In this document: one piece after another, positions 3,396 through 17,588 of the stretch
Position numbering within the stretch: position 1 is the stretch's first letter
Layout of the letters: each line of letters begins with the position of its first letter
Origin: a virus
Length of the DNA stretch: 18,942 bases
Reading direction: 5' to 3' (one strand)
Virus genome (UHGV): UHGV-0121731
Program-made: the position numbers and the translations under genes
Notes under the pieces: generated by a model
Told to the model about the DNA's origin: nothing
Database searches by the model: none
The model's input: the letters and a program-made list of their open reading frames with translations, nothing else

Positions 3396-3667
3396 GTATT
3401 CGTATCGAAATTGGCGAACGTTATGTCGTTACCAGTGACAGCTTTCAGTTTATTCTCCACGAGAAAAAGAGAGCGGAAAGCGGTAAAAACGCCGGTCAGG
3501 AGTGGCTGGCGGTGGTTGGTTATTACCCGAAATTAAGCCAGCTCGTTTCCGGCCTGATGCATCACGATATTCTGACCGGAAGCGCAAAGTCTTTTGCTGA
3601 TTTAAACGCGCAGGTTGAGCAACTCAGCAAGCGTTGTTCAGAGGCTTTTGGCTCATATGGCCGTTAA
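3392..3667 (+). CDS. Hypothetical early protein (91 aa), P2 orf83 position
   Basis: ATGA overlap with the upstream gene at 3392-3395. Its 3' end overlaps the start of A. Confidence 0.5.
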   Translation: MSIRIEIGERYVVTSDSFQFILHEKKRAESGKNAGQEWLAVVGYYPKLSQLVSGLMHHDILTGSAKSFADLNAQVEQLSKRCSEAFGSYGR

Positions 3668-5921
3668 AGCCTCCGGGCATTTTGTCCCTCCGTCAGCATT
3701 TGCCGCAGGCACCGGTGAGACGTTTACCGGTGCTTATGCATGGAACGCGCCACGCGAGGCCGTCGGGCGCGAAAGACCCCTTACACGTGACGAGATGCGT
3801 CAGGTGCAAGGTGTTTTATCCACGATTAACCGCCTGCCTTACTTTTTGCGCTCGCTGTTTACTTCACGCTATGACTACATCCGGCGCAATAAAAGCCCGG
3901 TACACGGGTTTTATTTCCTCACATCCACTTTTCAGCGTCGTTTATGGCCGCGCATTGAACGTGTGAATCAGCGCCATGAAATGAACACCGACGCGTCGTT
4001 GCTGTTTCTGGCAGAGCGTGACCATTATGCGCGTCTGCCGGGGATGAATGACAAGGAGCTGAAAAAGTTTGCCGCCCGTATCTCATCGCAGCTTTTCATG
4101 ATGTATGAGGAACTCAGCGATGCCTGGGTGGATGCGCATGGCGAAAAAGAATCACTGTTTACGGATGAGGCTCAGGCTCACCTGTATGGTCATGTTGCTG
4201 GCGCTGCACGAGCTTTCAATATTTCCCCGCTCTACTGGAAAAAATACCGTAAAGGACAGATAACCACGAGGCAGGCATATTCTGCCATTGCCCGCCTGTT
4301 TAACGATGAGTGGTGGACTCATCAGCTTAAAGGCCAGCGTATGCGCTGGCATGAAGCGTTACTGATAGCTGTCGGGGAGGTCAATAAAGACCGTTCTCCT
4401 TATGCCAGTAAACATGCCATTCGTGATGTGCGTGCACGCCGCCAGGCAAATCTGGAATTTCTTAAATCGTGTGACCTCGAAAACAGGGAAACCGGCGAGC
4501 GCATCGACCTTATCAGTAAGGTGATGGGCAGTATTTCTAATCCTGAAATTCGCCGGATGGAGCTGATGAACACCATCGCTGGTATTGAGCGTTACGCCGC
4601 CGCAGAGGGTGATGTGGGGATGTTTATCACGCTTACCGCGCCGTCAAAGTATCACCCGACACGTCAGGTCGGAAAAGGTGAAAGTAAAACCGTCCAGCTT
4701 AATCACGGCTGGAACGATGAGGCATTTAATCCAAAGGATGCGCAGCGTTATCTCTGCCGTATCTGGAGCCTGATGCGCACGGCATTCAAGGATAATGATT
4801 TACAGGCCTACGGTTTGCGTGTCGTCGAGCCACACCACGACGGAACGCCGCACTGGCATATGATGCTTTTTTGTAATCCACGCCAGCGTAACCAGATTAT
4901 TGAAATCATGCGTCGTTATGCGCTCAAAGAGGATGGCGACGAAAGAGGAGCCGCGCGAAACCGTTTTCAGGCAAAACACCTTAACCGGGGCGGTGCTGCG
5001 GGATATATCGCGAAATACATCTCAAAAAATATCGACGGCTATGCACTGGATGGTCAGCTCGATAACGATACCGGCAGACCGCTGAAAGACACTGCTGCGG
5101 CTGTTACCGCATGGGCGTCAACGTGGCGTATCCCGCAATTTAAAACGGTTGGCCTGCCGACAATGGGGGCTTACCGTGAACTACGCAAACTGCCTCGCGG
5201 CGTCAGCATTGCTGATGAGTTTGACGAACGCGTCGAGGCTGCACGCGCCGCCGCAGACAGTGGTGATTTTGCGTTGTATATCAGCGCGCAGGGTGGGGCA
5301 AATGTCCCGCGCGATTGTCAGACTGTCAGGGTTGCCCGTAGCCCGTCGGATGACGTTAACGAGTACGAGGAAGAAGTCGAGAGAGTGGTCGGCATTTACG
5401 CACCGCATCTCGGCGCGCGTCATATTCATATCACCAGAACCACGGACTGGCGCATTGTGCCGAAAGTGCCGGTCGTTGAGCCTTTGACTTTAAAAAGCGG
5501 CATCGCCGCGCCTCGGAGTCCTGTCAATAACTGTGGAAAGCTCACCGGTGGTGATACTTCGTTACCGGCTCCCACACCTTCTGAGCACGCCGCAGCAGTG
5601 CTTAATCTGGTTGATGACGGTGTTATCGAATGGGATGACCCGGATGTCGTGAGGGCGCTCAGAGGTGCATTGAAACACGGACTGAGAACACCAAATCGTC
5701 AGCAAAGAAACGGAAGCCCGTTAAAACCGCATGAAATAGCGCCATCAGCCAGACTGACCCGGTCGGAACGAATGCAAATCACCCGTATCCGCGTTGACCT
5801 TGCTCAGAACGGTATCAGGCCGCAGCGATGGGAACTTGAGGCGCTGGCGCGTGGAGCGACATTGGTATATGGCGAAAAAAAATTCACATATCAGCTTGTT
5901 GATAAGCAGTTTGGTTTTTAA
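3657..5921 (+). CDS. A: Rolling-circle replication initiation endonuclease, P2 gpA family (754 aa from the ATG at 3657)
   Basis: N-terminus MAVKASGHFVPPSAFAAGTGETFTGAYAWNAPREAVGRER matches my recollection of P2 A almost exactly. The length is close to P2 A (761 aa). The ORF track starts 14 codons earlier at 3615. Confidence 0.9.
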   Translation: MAVKASGHFVPPSAFAAGTGETFTGAYAWNAPREAVGRERPLTRDEMRQVQGVLSTINRLPYFLRSLFTSRYDYIRRNKSPVHGFYFLTSTFQRRLWPRIERVNQRHEMNTDASLLFLAERDHYARLPGMNDKELKKFAARISSQLFMMYEELSDAWVDAHGEKESLFTDEAQAHLYGHVAGAARAFNISPLYWKKYRKGQITTRQAYSAIARLFNDEWWTHQLKGQRMRWHEALLIAVGEVNKDRSPYASKHAIRDVRARRQANLEFLKSCDLENRETGERIDLISKVMGSISNPEIRRMELMNTIAGIERYAAAEGDVGMFITLTAPSKYHPTRQVGKGESKTVQLNHGWNDEAFNPKDAQRYLCRIWSLMRTAFKDNDLQAYGLRVVEPHHDGTPHWHMMLFCNPRQRNQIIEIMRRYALKEDGDERGAARNRFQAKHLNRGGAAGYIAKYISKNIDGYALDGQLDNDTGRPLKDTAAAVTAWASTWRIPQFKTVGLPTMGAYRELRKLPRGVSIADEFDERVEAARAAADSGDFALYISAQGGANVPRDCQTVRVARSPSDDVNEYEEEVERVVGIYAPHLGARHIHITRTTDWRIVPKVPVVEPLTLKSGIAAPRSPVNNCGKLTGGDTSLPAPTPSEHAAAVLNLVDDGVIEWDDPDVVRALRGALKHGLRTPNRQQRNGSPLKPHEIAPSARLTRSERMQITRIRVDLAQNGIRPQRWELEALARGATLVYGEKKFTYQLVDKQFGF

Positions 5922-6360
5922 TCAAATAGTGTATTAAATGTACTAAAATGTATCTTTTTATATAAAAAACAAAGTGCTGAATCAATTCTCATTTTTTGTA
6001 TTTTTTAGATCGTAAACCGATTAGTGTTACCAAGAGTATTCAGTTAATAGGGCTTTAATTTTTTGCTTCCCTGTTTTGGTGGTTATGTGGTACTGTTTTT
6101 TTATACAGTTTTTGAGGTTGCTGAGAAATAGAAAATGATAGAGTTATATGCGAGCCTTAGTTTAATTCGTTGTAATTAGGATTGGGTATATCATTCGTAC
6201 TGTCAGTGGTCATATACCACTAAGCAAAGCAATAGAATCCTACGAATTATTGTTTAAATAGTAACATTGGCAATTATAACGGCAGTATCTGTGTTTTGTC
6301 TGTCAGTGGTTACATCGAGAGTATGTGATTTGCATTACATAACTAGTTGATGTTCCTTAG

Positions 6361-6389
6361 TTGTAGATAGAAAGTATTCGATTTATTAT
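6361..6389 (+). promoter_or_regulatory. Candidate sigma70 promoter for the cargo operon (-35 TTGTAG 6361-6366, 17-bp spacer, -10 TATTAT 6384-6389)
   Basis: Hexamers with canonical spacing lie about 35 bp upstream of the first cargo gene (ribosome-binding site AAGGA at 6410-6414, ATG at 6423). The region is AT-rich, so chance matches are likely. Confidence 0.25.
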
Positions 6390-6422
6390 AAGAGTACAAA
6401 AATTTATGCTAAGGATACTAGA

Positions 6423-6614
6423 ATGGAGTGGATTACACATATAATCACTTTCTTTGTCGGACTGGGAGCGGGTTGGTCGATTCGTGTCGTGTTTTCATCT
6501 AGAAAGCAAATTGGTGATTCCAGCGTGAACTCAAACAATCATACAGTTACTCAAACTGGTAACAGTGTTACAAATGGAAGTATTGTTGGCGGTAATCAGG
6601 ATAGGTCACATTAA
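6423..6614 (+). CDS. Small membrane protein (63 aa): one predicted TM helix plus an S/N/T/G-rich tail
   Basis: Good ribosome-binding site and ATG. Hydrophobic segment WITHIITFFVGLGAGWSIRVVF followed by a polar tail ending in the repeat GNSVTNGSIVGGNQ. First gene of the low-GC operon. Confidence 0.5.
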   Translation: MEWITHIITFFVGLGAGWSIRVVFSSRKQIGDSSVNSNNHTVTQTGNSVTNGSIVGGNQDRSH

Positions 6615-6625
6615 GAGGTGTTGGT

Positions 6626-7189
6626 GTGTCTATCGAACAGTCAGGAAATACCGTAACAAATGGCAACATAATTTCTGGTGATCAGACTAATCATATATTC
6701 AATTATCCTGTTAAAGGAACTAACAGGGAGATACAGAAACTTTATGAGTGTTTGAAGAGAGGTGATATAGGGGAAGCGGTTCCGGGGTTTTGTGCTGAAC
6801 TAGAGCATTATATGTCCCTTCAGCCTGATATTGATGTTCGGGGGTTAGACGCTAAATTACTCGAGAGTAATAGAAAAGATTTGTTGTTTTTAGCTAAGCA
6901 GATGAAGGAAAAAGCGACAAAAGCTATAATGCGTCGCCAGACGTCAAAAACTGCACAAAGAATATTTGTAATAATTTTAGATCAAATTCATTTTGATTTT
7001 ATAACGAAAGTAACACCACTTATAGAAGCGGATAGCTCCAGAGTGATTGTTGATGAGAAAATCGCTTCAATAATTGATGAATTATATTCGTCTTTGGGAG
7101 AAAACTTGCTAGAGCTAACAGCAAAAGATCTCTTGGGATTACTATTTTTTCTGGGTGGCAATTGCCATATAAGGTGGGATAAATGCTAA
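6626..7189 (+). CDS. Hypothetical protein (187 aa): N-terminal GNTVTNGNIISGDQ repeat and a helical C-terminal domain
   Basis: GTG start preceded by AGAGGTG. Its N-terminus repeats the C-terminal peptide motif of the upstream small ORF. Stop overlaps the next start (ATG at 7183). Confidence 0.55.
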   Translation: MSIEQSGNTVTNGNIISGDQTNHIFNYPVKGTNREIQKLYECLKRGDIGEAVPGFCAELEHYMSLQPDIDVRGLDAKLLESNRKDLLFLAKQMKEKATKAIMRRQTSKTAQRIFVIILDQIHFDFITKVTPLIEADSSRVIVDEKIASIIDELYSSLGENLLELTAKDLLGLLFFLGGNCHIRWDKC

Positions 7190-7683
7190 TTTACCATCCA
7201 GCATATGATGCATATCATTGTTTATTCAGAATGATTGCTCTTATAGACCATGTAAATGAAATTGAGGTAGATAAGGCCAGGATTTTGGACTTCTATCTGC
7301 TATTTCCTGCTTTGGTATCTGAAATTAGAATGCCTCATAATTATTCTTCAATGAAGAAAGAAGCGAAGAAGTATTCTAATATATATCGGGATCCTATTAA
7401 TGTTACATCTACATTCAGAGATATGTATGAAATTCAAATGGCAGCAATAAGATGTCTTGCAGCTACTGGGTTGGTTGAGATGGATTGTCTTGAGAAAAAC
7501 ATTATAAAGAGAACAGATAAGTCTGTTCCAGATGGCTTATTACTTTCTATTAATAATTTTATTAATACGAATAAAACTATTAATACATTTATCATAGACA
7601 CACTATCTAAATTCCATTTGGTTGGAAAAGATGGTTTAAAAGATAGAACGAAGTTAATGGAGTTTAGATATGACTATTCTTAA
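7183..7683 (+). CDS. Hypothetical small helical protein (166 aa); possible middle-component-like partner of the ATPase
   Basis: Overlaps both neighbours (translational coupling). No catalytic motif is recognisable by eye. Confidence 0.55.
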   Translation: MLIYHPAYDAYHCLFRMIALIDHVNEIEVDKARILDFYLLFPALVSEIRMPHNYSSMKKEAKKYSNIYRDPINVTSTFRDMYEIQMAAIRCLAATGLVEMDCLEKNIIKRTDKSVPDGLLLSINNFINTNKTINTFIIDTLSKFHLVGKDGLKDRTKLMEFRYDYS

Positions 7684-9607
7684 TCCATCTTTTTTTGTTA
7701 GTAAATTAAAAGTTTTCCAAGCTGGGCATGAAGCCTTTAGCTGTGTTTTCCATAAAGGGGTAAATGTAATAAGGGGGCGAAATAGCTCTGGCAAAACTAC
7801 TGTTATGGATCTTTTAGCATTTTCACTTGGTGCTGAAAATATTAGCTTGAAACCAACAGCTCTTTTATGTTCATTTACCATGGTTGAAGTGCTTTTGAAT
7901 AATAATCTTGCCTGTTTTAAGCGGGAGATAAGTTCAGAATCCATGCGACCGTTGAGTATTTTTTGGGGCTCGATGGATAAAGCTCTTAACTCATCACCGA
8001 GTCAGTGGCAAACTTATCCTTTTAAGCGTTCAGAAAAATCACTGAGTTTTTCTCAGGTAATTTTAAATGCTTTAGATATGCCTCTAGCTCAAGGAGAGGG
8101 TGCTTCAATTTTAACAATGCATCAAATCCTACGTGTATTATATGCAGATCAGCCATCTCTTCATAGTCCTATATTTAGGAACGATAATTTTGATAGAGCT
8201 CTAACACGAGAGACTATTGGTGATTATTTATGTGGTATATTTGATGACAAACTTTATAGCTCTTTGATTAGGCTTAAACAGGTTGATTCTGAACTTTCGA
8301 CAAAAATTGTTGAGCTGAAAAGCATATTTAAAGTTCTTGGACGCTCTGGGCAATCGCAGCATGTAAGTTTTATTGACGATAAAATAAAAGAGCTAAGAGA
8401 GAAGAAAGAAAAGATCAATGGCGAGCTTATCTCTCTCAAAGAGAGTAATAACTCTTCTGTTAATGATAAAAATGCTGATAAAACTAAAACTAACAACCTT
8501 CGAAAAAAATTAAATAAAGCGAAGGAAGAAGAAGTAAAAAATATTGATAGTATCCATATGTTAGAAATGGAGATAGCTGACTCTGAAATGTTCATTAATG
8601 AGTTAGAATCCAGATTGCGCTCTCTTAATGAATCAAGTATTGCCAGAGACTATTTTAGCAACGTTAAATTTCAATTTTGTCCCAGTTGTTTAAGTGAGTT
8701 GAATATTTCCTCTGAAAATGAGTGCTCATTATGTAAAAATCACGCGCCAGAGGGTAGTGATGCTCCTCAATTATTAAGGATGAAAAATGAGATTTCTATC
8801 CAATTAAAAGAATCCAGAGATCTTCTTGAGCATAATTATGTAAAACTGAGAGAGCTTAAGAGCCAATCTCCTGCTTTAAAGCAAAAAGTGCGAGATTTAA
8901 TTCGTGAATATGAAGAAGTCTCTAAGGTTTGGGAAAATGCCTATGAAATAGAGTTTGAAACTCTTACTAAGGCTCTGGGACGTGTTGAAGAAGAAATTAA
9001 ACAGGCTTGTGAATTACAAAAACTTAGTGATGTAATATCTGATTTGCAAAAAGAACGTGATAGTCTGCAGTTAGAGAAGGAGAGATTGTCCTCTTTAATT
9101 GAATCTTTGGAGAGTAAAGAGGAATATAGGAAGAAGGATATTTCTAAAACTATAGAAAAAATTATGAAAAGACTTCTTAAAAAAGATCTTCCATTGCAGA
9201 CTGAATTTATTGATCCCAGAAAAGTTAATTTTAGCTTTGCCGATAATACTGTTTATGTAAATGGGGCTAAGTATTTTTCAGAAAGTTCAGCAGTTGTATT
9301 AAGACATCTCTTTCATTTAGCATTGTTAACTGCAAGCATTGAAAAAAAATACATGAGATTACCTCGTTTCCTAATGCTTGATGGAATTGACGATGGTGGA
9401 ATGGAGAAAGAGCGCAGTCACAATCTGCAGAAAATAATAGTACAAGAAACTCAATCGTATCAATATGATTTTCAAATAATTTATGCGACATCGGAGATTA
9501 ATCCAGAATATGAAAATACCGATTTGATTGTTGGTCGGTATTTTAATCCAGATGATAAATCATTAAAGATAAATTATACCGCTCTTGATAAAGATTTATT
9601 GAACTAA
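7670..9607 (+). CDS. SMC/Rad50-like ABC ATPase (645 aa) with split head, long K/E-rich coiled coil and central CxxC-x14-CxxC hook
   Basis: Walker A GRNSSGKTT at residues 36-44 (nt 7775-7801). Central Cys pairs CPSC...CSLC at nt 8678-8734. K/E-rich heptad-like region across roughly residues 200-520. C-terminal Walker B-like FLMLDGIDDGG (about nt 9371-9400) followed by ERSH. No Toprim or other nuclease domain is appended. Confidence 0.75.
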   Translation: MTILNPSFFVSKLKVFQAGHEAFSCVFHKGVNVIRGRNSSGKTTVMDLLAFSLGAENISLKPTALLCSFTMVEVLLNNNLACFKREISSESMRPLSIFWGSMDKALNSSPSQWQTYPFKRSEKSLSFSQVILNALDMPLAQGEGASILTMHQILRVLYADQPSLHSPIFRNDNFDRALTRETIGDYLCGIFDDKLYSSLIRLKQVDSELSTKIVELKSIFKVLGRSGQSQHVSFIDDKIKELREKKEKINGELISLKESNNSSVNDKNADKTKTNNLRKKLNKAKEEEVKNIDSIHMLEMEIADSEMFINELESRLRSLNESSIARDYFSNVKFQFCPSCLSELNISSENECSLCKNHAPEGSDAPQLLRMKNEISIQLKESRDLLEHNYVKLRELKSQSPALKQKVRDLIREYEEVSKVWENAYEIEFETLTKALGRVEEEIKQACELQKLSDVISDLQKERDSLQLEKERLSSLIESLESKEEYRKKDISKTIEKIMKRLLKKDLPLQTEFIDPRKVNFSFADNTVYVNGAKYFSESSAVVLRHLFHLALLTASIEKKYMRLPRFLMLDGIDDGGMEKERSHNLQKIIVQETQSYQYDFQIIYATSEINPEYENTDLIVGRYFNPDDKSLKINYTALDKDLLN

Positions 9608-9612
9608 CAACC

Positions 9613-9640
9613 AAAACCATGCATAACCATGCATGGTTTT
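9613..9640 (+). terminator. Intrinsic terminator after the cargo operon
   Basis: Perfect hairpin AAAACCATGCAT-aacc-ATGCATGGTTTT starting 6 nt after the ATPase stop. The stem ends in a T-run on the + strand and an A-run precedes it, so it could terminate in both directions. Confidence 0.6.
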
Positions 9641-9740
9641 GCATTTATATCAGCTTGTTTTTGAATCGGGGCAAGTCCAGAGGTGGTAAGCTGTTTGGAG
9701 AAAACTGCAACTGCATTAAAACCGCCCCACGAAGCGGGCG

Positions 9741-9759
9741 GGCGAGGCGGGGAAAGCAC
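9741..9759. other. P2-type cos site (19-nt cohesive-end sequence GGCGAGGCGGGGAAAGCAC)
   Basis: Exact match to the P2 cohesive-end sequence as I remember it, located between the hotspot and portal gene Q as in P2 prophage maps. The sequence is recalled, not looked up. Confidence 0.6.
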
Positions 9760-9901
9760 TGCGCGCTGGCGGTGGTGCTGATTTTATTTTTTCAGCGTCT
9801 GAGCGCGTCGTGATGGCGTTTAGATTGTTAGCCGGGGCGTTGGTGTGTCTGCGGGCTGTTTTGTGCGGTGGTGAGCGTGTGAGGGCGTGATGGCGGGTTG
9901 T

Positions 9902-9928: not shown

Positions 9929-10963
9929 TCAGCCGTTGTCAGTGTCCAGTGAGTAGTTTTTAAAGCGGATGACCTCCTGACCGAGCCAGCCGTTTATCTC
10001 GCGGATCCTGTCCTGTAACGGGATAAGCTCATTGCGGACAAAGACCTTTGCCACTTTCTCAATATCACCCAGCGACCCGACGTTCTCCGGCTTGCCCCCC
10101 ATCAACTGAAAGGGGATGCGGTGCGCGTCCAGCAGGTCAGCGGCGCTGGCTTTTTTGATATTAAAAAAATCGTCCTTCGTTGCCACTTCACTGAGCGGGA
10201 TAATTTTAATGCCGTCGGCTTTCCCCTGTGGGGCATAGAGAAACAGATTTTTAAAGTTATTGCGGCCTTTCGACTTAACCATGTTTTCGCGAAGCATTTC
10301 GATATCGTTGCGATCCTGCACGGCATCAGTGACGTACATGATGTATCCGGCATGTGCGCCGTTTTCGTAATACTTGCGGCGGAACAGCGTGGCCGACTCA
10401 TTCAGCCAGGCAGAGTTAAGGGCGCTGAGATATTCCGGCAGGCCGTACAGCTCCTGATTAATATCCGGCTCCAGCAGGTGAAACACGGAGCCGGGCGTGA
10501 AAGGTGTCGGCTCGTTGAAGGACGGCACCCACCAGTAAACATCCTCCTCCACCCCACGGCGGGTATATTTTGCCGGTGAGGTTTCCAGTCTGATGACCTT
10601 ACCGGTAGTGCTGTAACGCTTTTCCAGAAACGCATTACCGAACACCAGAAAATCCAGCACAAAGCGGCTGAAATCCTGCTGAGAAAGCCACGGATGCGGG
10701 ATAAATGTCGAGGCCAGAATATTGCGTTTGACGTAAATTGGTGAGCTGTGATGCACGGCAGCACGCAGGCTTTTTGCCAGACCGGTAAAGCTGACCGGTG
10801 GCTCATACCATCTGCCGTTACTGATGCACTCGACGTAATCCAGAATGTCACGGCGGTCGAGTACCGGCACCGGCTCACCAAAGGTGAATGCTTCCATTTT
10901 CGGGGCGCTGGCGGTCATTTTTTTTGCCGCAGGTTGCGGTGTTTTCCCTTTTTTCTTGCTCAT
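9929..10963 (-). CDS. Q: Portal protein, P2 gpQ family (344 aa)
   Basis: Length identical to P2 Q. Product starts MSKKKGKTPQPAAKK with a GGAG ribosome-binding site. Its start overlaps the stop of the upstream terminase remnant (TGATG), as in the P2 P-Q operon. Confidence 0.85.
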   Translation of the reverse strand: MSKKKGKTPQPAAKKMTASAPKMEAFTFGEPVPVLDRRDILDYVECISNGRWYEPPVSFTGLAKSLRAAVHHSSPIYVKRNILASTFIPHPWLSQQDFSRFVLDFLVFGNAFLEKRYSTTGKVIRLETSPAKYTRRGVEEDVYWWVPSFNEPTPFTPGSVFHLLEPDINQELYGLPEYLSALNSAWLNESATLFRRKYYENGAHAGYIMYVTDAVQDRNDIEMLRENMVKSKGRNNFKNLFLYAPQGKADGIKIIPLSEVATKDDFFNIKKASAADLLDAHRIPFQLMGGKPENVGSLGDIEKVAKVFVRNELIPLQDRIREINGWLGQEVIRFKNYSLDTDNG

Positions 10964-11235
10964 CAGTAAAACTCCAGAATGGTGGATGTCAGCGAGGTGC
11001 TGATACCGGCGGTGAGTGGCTCATTTAACAGGGCGTGCATGGTCGCCCAGGCGAGGTCGGCGTGGCTGGCTTCCTCGCTGCGGCTGGCCTCATAGGTGGC
11101 GCTGCGTCCGCTGCTGGTCATGGTCTTGCGGATAGCCATAAACGAGCTGGTGATGTCGGTGGCGCTGACGTCATATTCCAGACAGCCACGACGGATAACG
11201 TCTTTTGCCTTGAGCACCATTGCGGTTTTCATTTC
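10963..11235 (-). pseudogene. P: Terminase large subunit (P2 gpP family), C-terminal remnant only (about 90 codons of an expected ~590)
   Basis: The minus-strand frame ending ...SLTSTILEFY is coupled to the Q start as in P2, but the reading frame runs into the S remnant and V/W on the opposite strand within about 300 bp, so the 5' ~1.5 kb of P is absent. Confidence 0.7.
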
Positions 11236-11664
11236 CGGTGTGTGACCGGACTGATTGAATCGCTGTCACCGTCAGGGCGTCGGCGACTGAGCGCCGAACT
11301 GGCGAAACGTCTGCGTCAGAGTCAGCAGCGTCGGGTGATGGCACAGAAAGCCCCGGACGGCACACCCTACGCGCCACGCCAGCAGCAGAGCGCCAGAAAA
11401 AAGACTGGTCGTGTTAAGCGAAAAATGTTTGCGAAACTTATCACCAGTCGTTTTTTGCATATCCGCGCCAGCCCGGAACAGGCATCAATGGAATTTTACG
11501 GCGGGAAGTCGCCGAAAATCGCCAGTGTGCATCAGTTCGGTCTGTCGGAAGAAACCCGGAAAGACGGTAAGAAAATTGATTATCCGGCGCGTCCTCTGCT
11601 CGGCTTTACCGGTGAGGATGTGCAGATGATTGAAGAGATTATCCTGGCTCACCTCGACCGTTAG
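11236..11664 (+). pseudogene. S: Tail completion protein (P2 gpS family) lacking its start and first residues
   Basis: Frame reading ...LSPSGRRRLSAELAKRLRQSQQRRVMAQKAPDGTPYAPRQ... to a stop at 11664 resembles gpS-type proteins. No start codon or ribosome-binding site is present, and it abuts the terminase remnant on the other strand. Confidence 0.65.
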
Positions 11665-15410: not shown

Positions 15411-15851
15411 ATGCAGAAATATATTTTCAGTGCCGATAAAAATGCGTTTTTCCCTGTGGAGCTTAAAATCGCTTATCAGGAATCCGGCGAATGGCCCGAT
15501 GATGGAATCGAAATTGACGACACTGTTGCTGCCGAATTTATGAAGGAAGCACCAGAAGGAAAATACAGAGGTGTCATCGACGGAATGCCTGCATGGATTG
15601 ATATTCCACCGCCAACTCATGAGGAACAAATTGCCGCAGCCGAACTGAAAAAGCAGCAATTGATTAATCAGGTCAACGAATACATAAACAGTAAGCAATG
15701 GCCTGGTAAAGCGGCGATTGGTCGCCTGAAAGGTGAGGAACTGGTGCAATATAATTTGTGGCTGGATTATCTGGACGCACTGGAACTGGTCGATACTTCC
15801 GGTGCGCCAGATATTGAATGGCCTACGCCTCCGGCAGTTCAGGCCAGATGA
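15411..15851 (+). CDS. Tail fibre assembly chaperone for the current orientation (146 aa)
   Basis: Immediately follows the fibre gene. C-terminus LWLDYLDALELVDTSGAPDIEWP is the conserved tail-fibre-assembly C-terminal motif. Confidence 0.8.
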   Translation: MQKYIFSADKNAFFPVELKIAYQESGEWPDDGIEIDDTVAAEFMKEAPEGKYRGVIDGMPAWIDIPPPTHEEQIAAAELKKQQLINQVNEYINSKQWPGKAAIGRLKGEELVQYNLWLDYLDALELVDTSGAPDIEWPTPPAVQAR

Positions 15852-16425
15852 CATCAGGCGCGGTGCTGGTATCTGTTGCCTCCACCGCGTCAATGTAATC
15901 CAGCACAGCGTTAAGTCGGGTGGTTTCTGCCTGCGTCAGCTTCCGCCCGGCCCGTAATTTCATCTGAATCAGACTGATGGAAGCCATTGCAGCATCAATC
16001 AGCGACTGGCGCTTTGCTTCTGCCGCGTCTAGTGCGGCGCTATGCTGTGCCTCGGTATCCGTCACCCATTTCTCACCATCCCATTTATCGAATGGCGTTA
16101 ACGGGGCGATAGTGGTTGTATTTTCAGGGTAATCACCCGGAGCTGTGATTTCTTTCGATTCTCCTGTTTCGGTGCTATAGATGATTTCACCGCGATGGTC
16201 TGGTACATATTCCCATGAGTTAAAATCTGCAGAACGGCAGATTGCATAACCAGCTTTATGTGTAACTGGTGCATCTAAACAAGAACATGCCGGGATACCG
16301 ACGCCAACGGCAAGATATTCTGTTGATGATGAAATGTATTCCCGTGTCGTGTTGTCATAGTTATAGACGGTAATATCACCCGCTACTGTGGCAATAAATT
16401 CACTGTTTAATTTTGCCTGTGTCAT
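15823..16425 (-). CDS. Alternative tail fibre assembly chaperone (200 aa), convergent partner inside the invertible segment
   Basis: C-terminus LNAVLDYIDAVEATDTSTAPDVIWPELP shares the same chaperone motif. Its start overlaps the stop of the alternative fibre segment (TAATG). Confidence 0.8.
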   Translation of the reverse strand: MTQAKLNSEFIATVAGDITVYNYDNTTREYISSSTEYLAVGVGIPACSCLDAPVTHKAGYAICRSADFNSWEYVPDHRGEIIYSTETGESKEITAPGDYPENTTTIAPLTPFDKWDGEKWVTDTEAQHSAALDAAEAKRQSLIDAAMASISLIQMKLRAGRKLTQAETTRLNAVLDYIDAVEATDTSTAPDVIWPELPEA

Positions 16426-16926
16426 TATGCAGCCCTCACGATGTAGTTAAATGCAATGTTGCGCGGGCGGGTTTCAGTGCCAATATTCGCTGCATTGTCA
16501 GAAGCAACCCCACGAGTGCTGACAGCTCTTACTGCTGAAGGTAGGCTTTGAGGCTCCCGGTCAGTATAGGCAATCCCCCCATCCCCTCCAGTTGCTAGCG
16601 GAGCATAACTCCCGGCCTGACCAATAGTTGACGATGTTGTATTTGAACCTGTCCAGATCTGCTGGTTATGTGAGTGGTCTCTGAGTGAATGGCCTTGAGA
16701 TGAAAGCAGCGCACGCCCGTTGTCGATACCACGACTATCATCCCATCCACGAATAAACTCACCGCGTAAATCAGGTAATTTATTTGTTGGATAAGCCTTT
16801 GCCAGTTCCGGGTATTCTTCAGCAGAAAATGCCGCACCGTTGCATTTCAGCCAGCCTGTTGGCGGTGTGGCTGAAGGCCATGGAACAGGCACCCCAACAG
16901 GTAATGCTGAGCCTTCTCCCAAACCA
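16425..16926 (-). CDS. Alternative, currently silent tail-fibre C-terminal segment (tail-collar type); expressed only after inversion fuses it to the constant part of H
   Basis: The minus-strand frame crosses the right crossover site and continues ...GLGEGSALPVGVPVPWPSATPPTGWLKCNGAAFSAEEYPELAKAYP..LPDLRGEFIRGWDD, a classic tail-collar fibre motif. It has no promoter or start of its own; the ORF-track Met at 16967 lies outside the segment. Confidence 0.75.
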
Positions 16927-16939
16927 ACGTTTATGAAAA
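16914..16939. other. Right crossover site of the invertible segment (TTCTCCCAAACCAACGTTTATGAAAA)
   Basis: Reverse complement TTTTCATAAACGTTGGTTTGGGAGAA shares its right half exactly with the left site. It lies about 50 bp upstream of the invertase gene. Confidence 0.65.
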
Positions 16940-16988
16940 TGCAGAGATAACGGGCAAGTGGCATCATCTCCGGTTTTTATTCAGGGGG

Positions 16989-17588
16989 ATGCTCATGTTT
17001 ATTGGCTATGTACGCGTATCAACAAATGACCAGAACACGGAATTGCAGCGTAACGCGCTGGAATGCGCGGGATGTGAGCGGATTTTTGAGGACAAAATCA
17101 GCGGCACGAAGTCCGACAGGCCGGGACTGAAAAAACTGCTCAGGACATTATCGGAGGGGGATACACTGGTAGTCTGGAAGCTGGACCGGCTGGGGCGTAG
17201 TATGCGGCATCTGGTCATTCTGGTTGAGGAACTGCGCGAACGTGGCATTAATTTTCGCAGCCTGACGGATGCTATTGATACCAGCACGCCGATGGGGCGT
17301 TTTTTCTTTCATGTGATGGGTGCCCTGGCTGAAATGGAACGAGAACTCATTGTCGAGCGGACTCGGGCCGGGCTGGAAGCGGCCAGAGCCAAAGGTCGTA
17401 TTGGTGGCAGACGTCCTAAACTCACCACGAGTGAGTGGGAGCAGGCCGGGCGTTTGCTGGCTGCAGGGGAGTCACGTCAACGCGTGGCACTGATTTTTGA
17501 TATTGGTCTGTCCACGCTCTATAAAAAATTTCCCTCATCAGCGACAAAGAATAAATTGTGTCATCCCTTAGCCAACCGGGACAAATAG
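16989..17588 (+). CDS. Serine DNA invertase, Gin/Hin/Pin/Cin family (199 aa; alternative ATG at 16995)
   Basis: MLMFIGYVRVSTNDQNTELQRNALECAGCERIFEDKISGTKSDRPGLKKLL...GRIGGRRPKLT is near-identical in pattern to Gin/Pin, with catalytic Ser in the VRVSTNDQ motif and a C-terminal helix-turn-helix. Confidence 0.9.
   Translation: MLMFIGYVRVSTNDQNTELQRNALECAGCERIFEDKISGTKSDRPGLKKLLRTLSEGDTLVVWKLDRLGRSMRHLVILVEELRERGINFRSLTDAIDTSTPMGRFFFHVMGALAEMERELIVERTRAGLEAARAKGRIGGRRPKLTTSEWEQAGRLLAAGESRQRVALIFDIGLSTLYKKFPSSATKNKLCHPLANRDK

Follow-up and report, generated by a model that had tools for sequence, protein, structure and literature searches.

Introduction

In the Lamassu systems that have been solved, two LmuB subunits, LmuC and LmuA form a closed complex in which the C-terminal oligomerisation domain of LmuA is sequestered. 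DNA ends or hairpins, together with ATP-dependent head engagement, free LmuA, and the freed C-terminal domains assemble (into a tetramer in the case of CTD7) and switch on the N-terminal enzyme (bioRxiv 10.1101/2025.03.14.643221; bioRxiv 10.1101/2025.06.23.660979; PMC12663957). The effector of Lamassu is LmuA, encoded two genes upstream of LmuB and bearing, in canonical systems, an N-terminal nuclease, lipase, Sir2, protease or other enzyme; LmuB itself never carries an effector. Haudiquet et al. described an effector-less clade, for which they report over 100 sequences from over 40 species (PMC12663957). Here, we analysed a Lamassu operon in UHGV virus genome UHGV-0121731, a stretch of 18,942 nucleotides (nt) hereafter called the window, in which LmuA likewise has no N-terminal enzyme domain and is preceded by a fourth gene.

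The window system resembles the published effector-less Lamassu (PMC12663957; PMC13586616) in its short LmuB (~600–650 amino acids [aa] in the published systems), its full-length LmuC and a LmuA that consists of the C-terminal domain only, and the published systems likewise occur in many species and in phage and satellite hotspots; this likeness is one of features. The main texts of these papers mention neither a fourth small gene nor a motif shared with LmuA, whereas these were found here at 31 of 31 loci. The system differs further from Salmonella enterica LmuACB (9hqu, 9hqx) and Vibrio cholerae DdmABC (Cap4-CTD7-MC3), to which identity is ~15%: it has CTD9 and MC5 rather than CTD7 and MC3, its LmuA carries no Cap4 nuclease and its Walker B reads D-G where theirs reads D-Q. 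In addition, its LmuB has two CxxC motifs and that of V. cholerae none. CTD9 is otherwise tied to lipase effectors (bioRxiv 10.1101/2025.03.14.643221), and with Lamassu Ec-Lipase and other CTD8/CTD9 lipase Lamassu the window system shares a CTD9 LmuA, a LmuB zinc hook and an E. coli host. In place of the lipase domain, however, its LmuA has an N-terminal motif of ~20 aa and a linker.

Results

Identity of the 645-aa ATPase

The operon comprises four genes, in the following order.

6423-6614, plus strand: small 63-aa protein, proposed membrane effector or partner; "hypothetical protein" in RefSeq; 11 nt upstream of LmuA
6626-7189, plus strand: LmuA, 187 aa, GTG start; N-terminal motif, linker and CTD9 oligomerisation/docking domain
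7183-7683, plus strand: LmuC middle component, 166 aa; Pfam MC5 (PF20291), E = 1.1e-52, full length
7670-9607, plus strand: LmuB open reading frame (ORF), ATG start, 645 aa; SMC/Rad50-like ABC ATPase sensor

An earlier note on this DNA, made from the letters alone, had described the 645-aa ORF at 7670-9607 as a Rad50-like ABC ATPase with a Walker A motif GRNSSGKTT and a segment FLMLDGIDDGG. The ORF and both motifs are present as described, and so are an antiparallel coiled coil and an apex cysteine module, but the identity of the protein as a Lamassu LmuB had been missed. The PADLOC LmuB model PDLC03862 matched aa 6-573 (E = 7.3e-47), and ten more PADLOC LmuB models matched the protein at E < 1e-5. 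Moreover, when an AlphaFold2 (AF2) model of the protein was searched with Foldseek, the top PDB matches were the Lamassu LmuB chains 9hqu_A (E = 3.8e-16), 9hqx, 9uxh_F and 9nyg_B, and Rad50, SMC, MukB and JetC ranked below them. A sequence search against PDB chains gave only noise, and the family profile did not recover the solved LmuB chains (~15% identical) from the PDB, where it matched only 5y05. RefSeq labels the last three genes of the operon as AAA family ATPase, ABC-three component system middle component 5 and ABC-three component system protein. LmuC lies between LmuA and LmuB and overlaps them by 7 and 14 nt, respectively. These results indicated with near certainty that the 645-aa protein, for which 443 homologues were found, is the LmuB of a short Lamassu (ABC-3C) system.

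LmuA consists of a CTD9 domain and a short N-terminal extension

In LmuA, Pfam CTD9 was detected at aa 73-184 (E = 2e-29), preceded by ~72 aa. No domain besides CTD9 was found in the Pfam, PADLOC and NCBIfam scans, indicating that there is no N-terminal enzyme domain. In the AF2 model (predicted local distance difference test [pLDDT] 82.8), aa 1-33 have no secondary structure (pLDDT ~50) and the remainder forms a helical domain. The short form is the rule among relatives: all 114 LmuA homologues from a word-indexed search are 125-223 aa long and carry CTD9 only. Furthermore, an exhaustive profile search over 1.84 billion representatives returned 604 clusters at 50% identity, 147 of them at E <= 1e-30, and 141 of the best 150 cluster representatives are 170-215 aa long and align from approximately profile position 3. 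One protein, P0328 (349 aa), combines a CTD9-like part with a PD-(D/E)xK-like N-terminal domain and is a canonical LmuA. The earlier note had argued that any effector activity must come from the small partners of the ATPase or from ATPase-driven DNA engagement. The first of these ideas was apt; LmuA is itself without an effector domain, and the fourth small gene is the best effector candidate.

A fourth gene is conserved upstream of LmuA

The 63-aa protein encoded upstream of LmuA has an ATG start preceded by an AAGGA Shine-Dalgarno sequence and corresponds to PHROG phrog_17975, an entry without a function (E = 1.5e-45). It is built of three parts: a hydrophobic, Gly-rich N-terminal helix, MEWITHIITFFVGLGAGWSIRVVF, a Ser/Arg/Asn-rich linker and a C-terminal tail, TVTQTGNSVTNGSIVGGNQDRSH.

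6432-6497, plus strand: small-protein helix, hydrophobic and rich in Gly, aa 4-25, ITHIITFFVGLGAGWSIRVVFS, followed by basic residues

The N-terminal part is conserved as M[ED]x[ILW][TS]...F.AG.G.GW. The Kyte-Doolittle maximum over 19 residues is 1.64 in the window protein and approximately 1.1-1.9 in its relatives. Because basic residues follow the helix, the topology is predicted to be N-out and C-in, with the tail in the cytoplasm. The small protein had no match in Pfam, PADLOC or NCBIfam, and its family profile had none in the PDB. When 18 members of the family were compared with Pfam, only weak matches to families with transmembrane (TM) helices (LapA_dom, YajC) were obtained.

The related loci were taken from a single genome-collection scan (26 loci) and from contigs of LmuB or LmuA homologues (7 loci). 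At all 31 loci with usable DNA, a three-part ORF of 50-70 aa lies immediately upstream of a short LmuA, and one more locus, for which DNA was lacking, has a called 51-aa ORF in the same position. These loci span Escherichia, Burkholderia, Pseudomonas, Acinetobacter and metagenomes. The small ORF is separated from LmuA by ~3-12 nt or overlaps it by 4 nt, and the four ORFs are intact at 30 of the 31 loci. The operon is thus one of four genes and not three: small protein, LmuA, LmuC and LmuB. In a Comamonas locus (L035, 4539-6591), LmuB is cut to 353 aa by an insertion sequence (DDE_Tnp_1), and the small ORF, LmuA and LmuC are intact.

A single frameshifted gene comprising the small ORF and LmuA was also considered and rejected, as the two are out of frame with each other at all loci and are preceded by separate Shine-Dalgarno sequences, and no fusion of them was found. 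Two entries called as LmuA (P0255 and P0327, 254-262 aa) proved to be gene-calling artefacts, in which the ORF is extended upstream and crosses the small gene in the wrong frame. Such calls hide the small gene from annotation.

The small protein and LmuA share a motif that co-varies within loci

The tail of the small protein recurs at the N-terminus of LmuA, which reads MSIEQSGNTVTNGNIISGDQTNH, a motif of ~20 aa rich in Gly, Asn and Asp.

6543-6599, plus strand: motif at the small-protein C-terminus, aa 41-59, TVTQTGNSVTNGSIVGGNQ; aligned to LmuA aa 2-20
6632-6685, plus strand: N-terminal motif of LmuA, aa 3-20, IEQSGNTVTNGNIISGDQ; same motif as the small-protein tail

The alignment score of the window pair was 63, compared with a mean of 20 and a maximum of 43 for shuffled sequences. 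In the small protein, Q44 is invariant, and G52 and D58 are nearly so. Across loci, the mean score of a tail with the LmuA head of its own locus was 53.4, compared with 38.8 for non-cognate partners and 20.2 for shuffled tails (maximum 43). When partners were permuted among 14 representative loci, the observed total was never reached in 20,000 trials (p = 5e-5). The variants of the motif follow the same pattern. Enterics have NGSIVGGNQ and NGNIISGDQ, and Burkholderia GGDIVGGD and SGDLVAGN; AGGDVAGRDI stands in both the small protein and LmuA of Methylibium and Roseateles, as does VGRDDNS in Acinetobacter, and a metagenome locus (L034) has the pair GHMSGRDVNV / GHMGGRDVNV. The motif pair therefore co-varies within loci. 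The likeness is one of protein sequence; a DNA repeat or recent gene conversion was rejected as its source, since the DNA of the two segments is 61% identical and the same codon is used at only 4 of 10 identical residues.

In addition, LmuA aa 3-21 matched positions 42-60 of phrog_17975 (E = 0.047). When the motif core was written as a loose regular expression, it was found in 100 of the best 150 short LmuA representatives within residues 1-60 and in only 6 within residues 61-180. In the six frames of the window it occurs at five places, two of which are the small-protein tail and the LmuA N-terminus. The motif consists to 46-73% of Gly, Asn, Gln, Ser, Thr and Asp with alternating hydrophobic residues, and it is disordered in the monomer model, which lends indirect support to a cross-beta fold of the kind formed by amyloid-signalling motifs. 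Taken together, these results suggested that the small protein is probably a functional partner of LmuA via the common motif. The Proteus small protein (locus L002, 3738-3950) contains SNNRTV twice, as a tandem pseudo-repeat just before the motif, an arrangement reminiscent of certain amyloid-signalling effectors whose motifs are pseudo-repeated.

Architecture of LmuB

The AF2 model of LmuB, built with 30 homologues, has a mean pLDDT of 76.5. A split ATPase head (residues 1-192 and 506-645) carries two arms, which are joined by an apex of 37 aa (329-365) that holds four cysteines.

7775-7801, plus strand: Walker A (P-loop) GRNSSGKTT, aa 36-44; invariant in the aligned homologues and related loci
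8246-8653, plus strand: ascending coiled-coil arm, aa 193-328, from AF2 and DSSP; helix breaks at 226-232 and 260-268
8678-8734, plus strand: apex cysteine module C337PSC340-x11-C352SLC355; predicted four-Cys zinc site
8765-9184, plus strand: descending coiled-coil arm, aa 366-505, from AF2 and DSSP; break at 419-423
9275-9289, plus strand: ABC signature-like FSESS, aa 536-540; invariant in homologues and related loci
9368-9400, plus strand: region of the deviant Walker B and the D-loop, FLMLD-G-IDDGG, aa 567-577; D571 and G572 invariant

The earlier note had predicted ~450 residues of K/E-rich coiled coil. The arms are indeed helical in the model and rich in Lys and Glu (26% and 31%, compared with 9% and 13% in the two halves of the head), but the region is ~310 aa long. 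The breaks at 260-268 and 419-423 lie approximately where Salmonella LmuB has its folding point FP1 (266-276 and 416-432), and FSESS lies at the position of the head-engagement serine that was mutated there (S536R) (bioRxiv 10.1101/2025.03.14.643221). No nuclease or other additional domain was found in LmuB in the Pfam, PADLOC and NCBIfam scans, in agreement with the earlier reading that no effector domain is appended.

The Walker B motif reads hhhhD-G, with Gly in place of the catalytic Glu, and this is invariant in 28 relatives; at the more distant locus L034 it is D-N. The consensus for short Lamassu is hhhhD[Q/S/T/E], and variants of the Lamassu Walker B have been described (PMC12663957). 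The Gly of the window LmuB is a further, unlisted variant of the glutamate-less Lamassu Walker B. A D-G Walker B would be expected to allow ATP binding with probably slow hydrolysis.

The apex cysteines of LmuB

LmuB contains nine cysteines, four of which form the motifs CPSC (aa 337-340) and CSLC (aa 352-355). The coordinates given for this pair in the earlier note are exact, and the spacer is 11 residues rather than 14. At the Cys frequency of LmuB, ~0.1 CxxC per protein would be expected by chance, and two within 20 residues far more rarely; the double CxxC exceeds chance. C337, P338, C340, C352, L354 and C355 are invariant in the 30 homologues (52-79% identity). Moreover, all 28 LmuB proteins of related loci, with identity down to 37%, have exactly two CxxC motifs at the same place, with spacers of 11-13 residues. 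In the model, DSSP placed a single beta bridge on either flank of both CxxC motifs (at 336, 343, 351 and 358). This pattern is as expected for two zinc knuckles, at the low pLDDT of the modelled apex (45-55).

The sole PDB match of the LmuB family profile was the coiled-coil and CxxC region of MSMEG_4306 (5y05, E = 1e-4), spanning the ascending helix and the first CxxC. MSMEG_4306 (5y05/5y06), which we take to be a coiled-coil protein with a C4 zinc ribbon, has no ATPase head, and its relation to LmuB is perhaps one of analogy and not homology. CPxC is the hook consensus of Rad50 and SbcC; the first motif of LmuB, CPSC, fits it and the second, CxLC, is extra. Like Rad50/SbcC, LmuB is a DNA-end-sensing ABC ATPase with CPxC at the tip of an antiparallel coiled coil, but Rad50/SbcC has one CxxC per protomer, with zinc coordinated between two protomers, where the window LmuB has two, the second (CxLC) 11-13 residues downstream. 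The window protein also has much shorter arms (~135-140 aa), no Mre11/SbcD partner and scores far under the family cut-offs. Lamassu has been proposed to derive from SbcCD (PMC12663957).

Zinc hooks are a described feature of LmuB. The hook is needed for defence by Salmonella LmuACB (bioRxiv 10.1101/2025.03.14.643221), Bacillus LmuB has a canonical CQYC hook (bioRxiv 10.1101/2025.06.23.660979), and short LmuB proteins carry 0, 1 or 2 copies of CxxC according to Haudiquet et al. (PMC12663957). LmuB and its cysteine hook are thus in themselves known biology, of the two-CxxC kind, and the earlier remark that a hook would be unusual for a small phage-defence ATPase did not hold, since LmuB hooks including two-CxxC forms are already published.

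The operon is cargo of a defective P2-like prophage

The operon lies in an island of low G+C content (GC).

5950-9850, unstranded: low-GC cargo island, ~3.9 kb; 33-40% GC, compared with 52-58% in the flanks
9612-9641, unstranded: perfect palindrome with a 13-bp stem, CAAAACCATGCAT-AACC-ATGCATGGTTTTG, 5 nt past the LmuB stop

The island is bounded by Phage_GPA (P2 replication gene A, 3615-5921) and Phage_portal (gene Q, 9929-10963, minus strand). The cos-proximal gpA-gpQ (old/tin) hotspot of P2-like phages was described by Rousset et al. (PMC9122126), and it is here that a defective P2-like prophage carries the Lamassu operon as cargo. Matches to records of P2-like phages are confined to the final 145 bp of the island, beside the cos end. 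Of 5426 complete E. coli genomes, 19 contain the whole island. In another E. coli prophage, the same hotspot holds a 55%-identical copy of the four genes together with a gene for a KAP-family NTPase (L004, 1475-6905); the small ORF of this copy was missed by the gene caller. The Burkholderia copies lie in defence islands close to type I restriction and HNH genes. The defence-hotspot context supports the predicted role of the system in anti-phage or anti-plasmid defence by abortive infection.

The palindrome is terminator-like on both strands and is likely the operon terminator. Lamassu reportedly responds to hairpin or palindromic DNA, which makes the presence of a long palindrome within a Lamassu locus curious. 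A direct repeat, CTGTCAGTGGT, stands at 6200-6210 and 6300-6310, 100 bp apart, in the AT-rich, non-coding leader of 470 nt that precedes the small ORF; the repeat possibly serves as an operator or other regulatory site.

The defect of the prophage is seen downstream of the island. After the portal gene (9929-10963, minus strand) comes a terminase remnant of 89 aa (10963-11232, minus strand, Terminase_6C), and directly after this a gpS-like gene (11035-11664) and genes V, W, J, I and H for baseplate and tail; the prophage lacks genes for the capsid, the small terminase and lysis. A tail-fibre inversion module (15823-17588) contains a Resolvase/HTH_7 invertase (16989-17588, plus strand), which adjoins oppositely oriented ORFs for tail collar and tail-fibre assembly (15823-16967, minus strand).

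Discussion

A proposed model for effector activation

By homology to the solved systems, we infer that the window system would form a sequestration complex of two LmuB, one LmuC and one LmuA, followed by release and oligomerisation of LmuA. In the closed complex, LmuC would be packed together with the apex region of LmuB and the C-terminal domain of LmuA; DNA ends or hairpins and ATP-driven head engagement would then release LmuA and permit its C-terminal domains to self-associate. Because the N-terminus of LmuA consists of the motif alone, oligomerisation can only bring motifs together. The clustered motifs might nucleate a beta-rich, amyloid-like fold that recruits and templates the matching motif that the small membrane protein carries on its cytoplasmic tail, and the helices clustered in this way might permeabilise the membrane and abort the infection.

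A precedent for this layout is found in the Bab/Agp pairs of E. coli prophage hotspots, in which a small protein bearing a hydrophobic helix at its N-terminus and a 20-aa motif at its C-terminus is matched by the same motif at the N-terminus of the sensor and signalling proceeds by amyloid templating (bioRxiv 10.1101/2024.11.07.622273). BASS11 templating in Bab/Agp activates a membrane-targeting executioner (bioRxiv 10.1101/2024.11.07.622273; bioRxiv 10.1101/2020.01.06.895854). The window pair shares with Bab/Agp, Bell/NLR and HET-S/NWD2 the adjacent genes, the small helical protein with a C-terminal motif, the motif at the N-terminus of the partner and the co-evolution of the two; with Bab/Agp it also shares the E. 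coli prophage defence hotspot and a sensor side that is expected to oligomerise on activation. The sensors of known amyloid pairs are NLR/STAND or TPR proteins that oligomerise on ligand binding, whereas here the sensor would be the SMC-like LmuB/LmuC, and oligomerisation would come from the LmuA C-terminus, which is taken from the literature only. Release and oligomerisation of LmuA would supply the nucleation step that amyloid signalling needs (bioRxiv 10.1101/2025.03.14.643221; bioRxiv 10.1101/2025.06.23.660979). The membrane-targeting Bell/HeLo-type domain has a pore-lining N-terminal helix, and the window protein has a single hydrophobic Gly-rich N-terminal helix without homology to it.

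On balance, a four-gene Lamassu in which a LmuA oligomer templates its fourth-gene partner, a small membrane protein, appears to be the best explanation overall. That the small protein is the membrane effector, activated by templating of the amyloid type, is a tentative proposal drawn from these analogies, and somewhat more tentative is its extension to "effector-less" Lamassu in general, which would be four-gene systems whose SMC-type sensor frees LmuA to template a single-helix killer of 50-70 aa.

Several points weigh against this interpretation. The small protein is 50-70 aa long with a single helix, Bab is a 90-aa helical bundle, and no homology is detectable between them, or between the small protein and Bell/Babybell or any other family. 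The likeness to BASS is one of layout and not of motif sequence (the BASS1-11 consensus is given in figures only), and amyloid formation is a proposal. The hydrophobicity of the small protein is borderline for a TM segment, and the cyclic oligomers of CTD8/CTD9 are an AF3 prediction only (bioRxiv 10.1101/2025.03.14.643221). An effector-less variant, putatively related, was negative against 28 phages (PMC13586616). The window system is known from its sequence and from models alone, and with the apex of LmuB modelled at a pLDDT of only 45-55, the clustering of its cysteines and the zinc stoichiometry are predictions. In the literature searched, nothing relevant to a link between Lamassu and amyloids or between LmuA and TM proteins was found; this literature did not include the founding paper on ABC-3C (Krishnan et al. 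2020), in which an earlier mention of a small partner is possible.

Alternative explanations

The co-variation of the motif, tight as it is, fits templating and a permanent tether alike and does not discriminate between them. In the latter case, a stable beta-zipper of the two motifs would anchor the complex constitutively at the inner membrane, for example near sites of phage DNA entry, with killing or interference due to some other factor. The evidence for a homotypic interaction (pair scores, permutation and locus variants) suits such a tether equally well, the basic residues after the helix predict the cytoplasmic tail that it needs, and the helix, with its weak LapA_dom and YajC matches, resembles a plain single-pass anchor. 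We nevertheless regard it as unlikely, as it leaves the system without an effector, although every studied Lamassu works through LmuA. Moreover, only the C-terminal domain of LmuA is sequestered in the solved complexes and its N-terminal part is free (bioRxiv 10.1101/2025.03.14.643221), so activation would not act on a permanent tether as a switch. A different view of the short LmuA is that the operon is a decaying lipase- or nuclease-type Lamassu that has lost its effector domain, with a spurious ORF upstream. The link of CTD9 to lipases elsewhere (bioRxiv 10.1101/2025.03.14.643221), the existence of P0328 with its CTD9-like part and PD-(D/E)xK-like N-terminus, the lack of protection by the putatively related variant (PMC13586616) and the defective state of the host prophage are in keeping with decay. 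This is very improbable, however, given that the four ORFs are intact at 30 of 31 loci in distant Proteobacteria with invariant catalytic motifs, that short LmuA spans hundreds of 50%-identity clusters, that the small ORF shows protein-like conservation, a Shine-Dalgarno sequence and fixed spacing, and that the effector-less clade comprises more than 100 sequences from more than 40 species (PMC12663957).

Other alternatives place the function in LmuB itself. The earlier note took the hook to imply dimerisation through zinc, but four cysteines in one chain can hold one zinc as an intramolecular ribbon, and two CxxC motifs per chain therefore do not by themselves imply zinc-mediated dimerisation. 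It is very likely that the apex, as predicted, binds zinc. The four cysteines most likely chelate it as a rigid two-knuckle module at the tip of the coiled coil; we favour one zinc per protomer, in a ribbon-like module that stiffens the tip of the arm, over bridging between protomers, which is possible. In the solved complexes, this tip is the place at which both LmuB chains come together with LmuC and the C-terminal domain of LmuA. In its full form, the bridging alternative holds that a Rad50-type intermolecular hook, possibly with two zincs, dimerises LmuB and that the ATPase acts on DNA alone, the small proteins being accessory. It gains from the fit of CPSC to the CPxC consensus of Rad50/SbcC. 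DNA ends are, moreover, bound by LmuB-LmuC (PMC12663957). We consider it a poor prospect, because the four cysteines of each chain suffice for an intramolecular site and the profile match to 5y05 covers a coiled coil with CxxC, because the D-G Walker B predicts a poor motor and because no role is left for the conserved LmuA, its N-terminal motif or the fourth gene. Hookless dimerisation of V. cholerae LmuB further indicates that zinc bridging is unnecessary for dimers (PMC12663957). Finally, a housekeeping SMC, RecN or SbcC/Rad50 gene or fragment, which the earlier note had named as an outcome that would overturn its reading, was rejected. The P-loop part at the N-terminus weakly resembles SMC and Rad50 models, but the NCBIfam Rad50/SMC models scored only 14-29 bits against cut-offs of 567-1087 (Rad50 models, 14-21 bits against 700-1087), no Mre11/SbcD nuclease gene was found next to LmuB among the window ORFs with Pfam, the gene lies inside a low-GC prophage cargo island, and the specific LmuB hidden Markov model and the LmuB structures match far better. 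A housekeeping origin can practically be set aside.

Implications

How a widespread Lamassu clade works without an effector domain is a published puzzle, to which a conserved fourth gene and a co-varying motif offer a testable answer. Within the literature covered, to which the founding ABC-3C paper does not belong, the output module of this Lamassu variant appears undescribed so far. Where constructs and annotation pipelines (DefenseFinder, PADLOC, RefSeq) are limited to the three named genes, the component that kills may be left out. If the four-gene templating model is true, the release-and-oligomerise principle of Lamassu can drive a non-enzymatic output, and the range of amyloid signalling would widen beyond NLR-like and TPR sensors to include DNA sensors of the SMC type. 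The system would then provide the first link between SMC/Rad50-like sensing and amyloid signal transduction, and the small protein would be the smallest known amyloid-controlled executioner.

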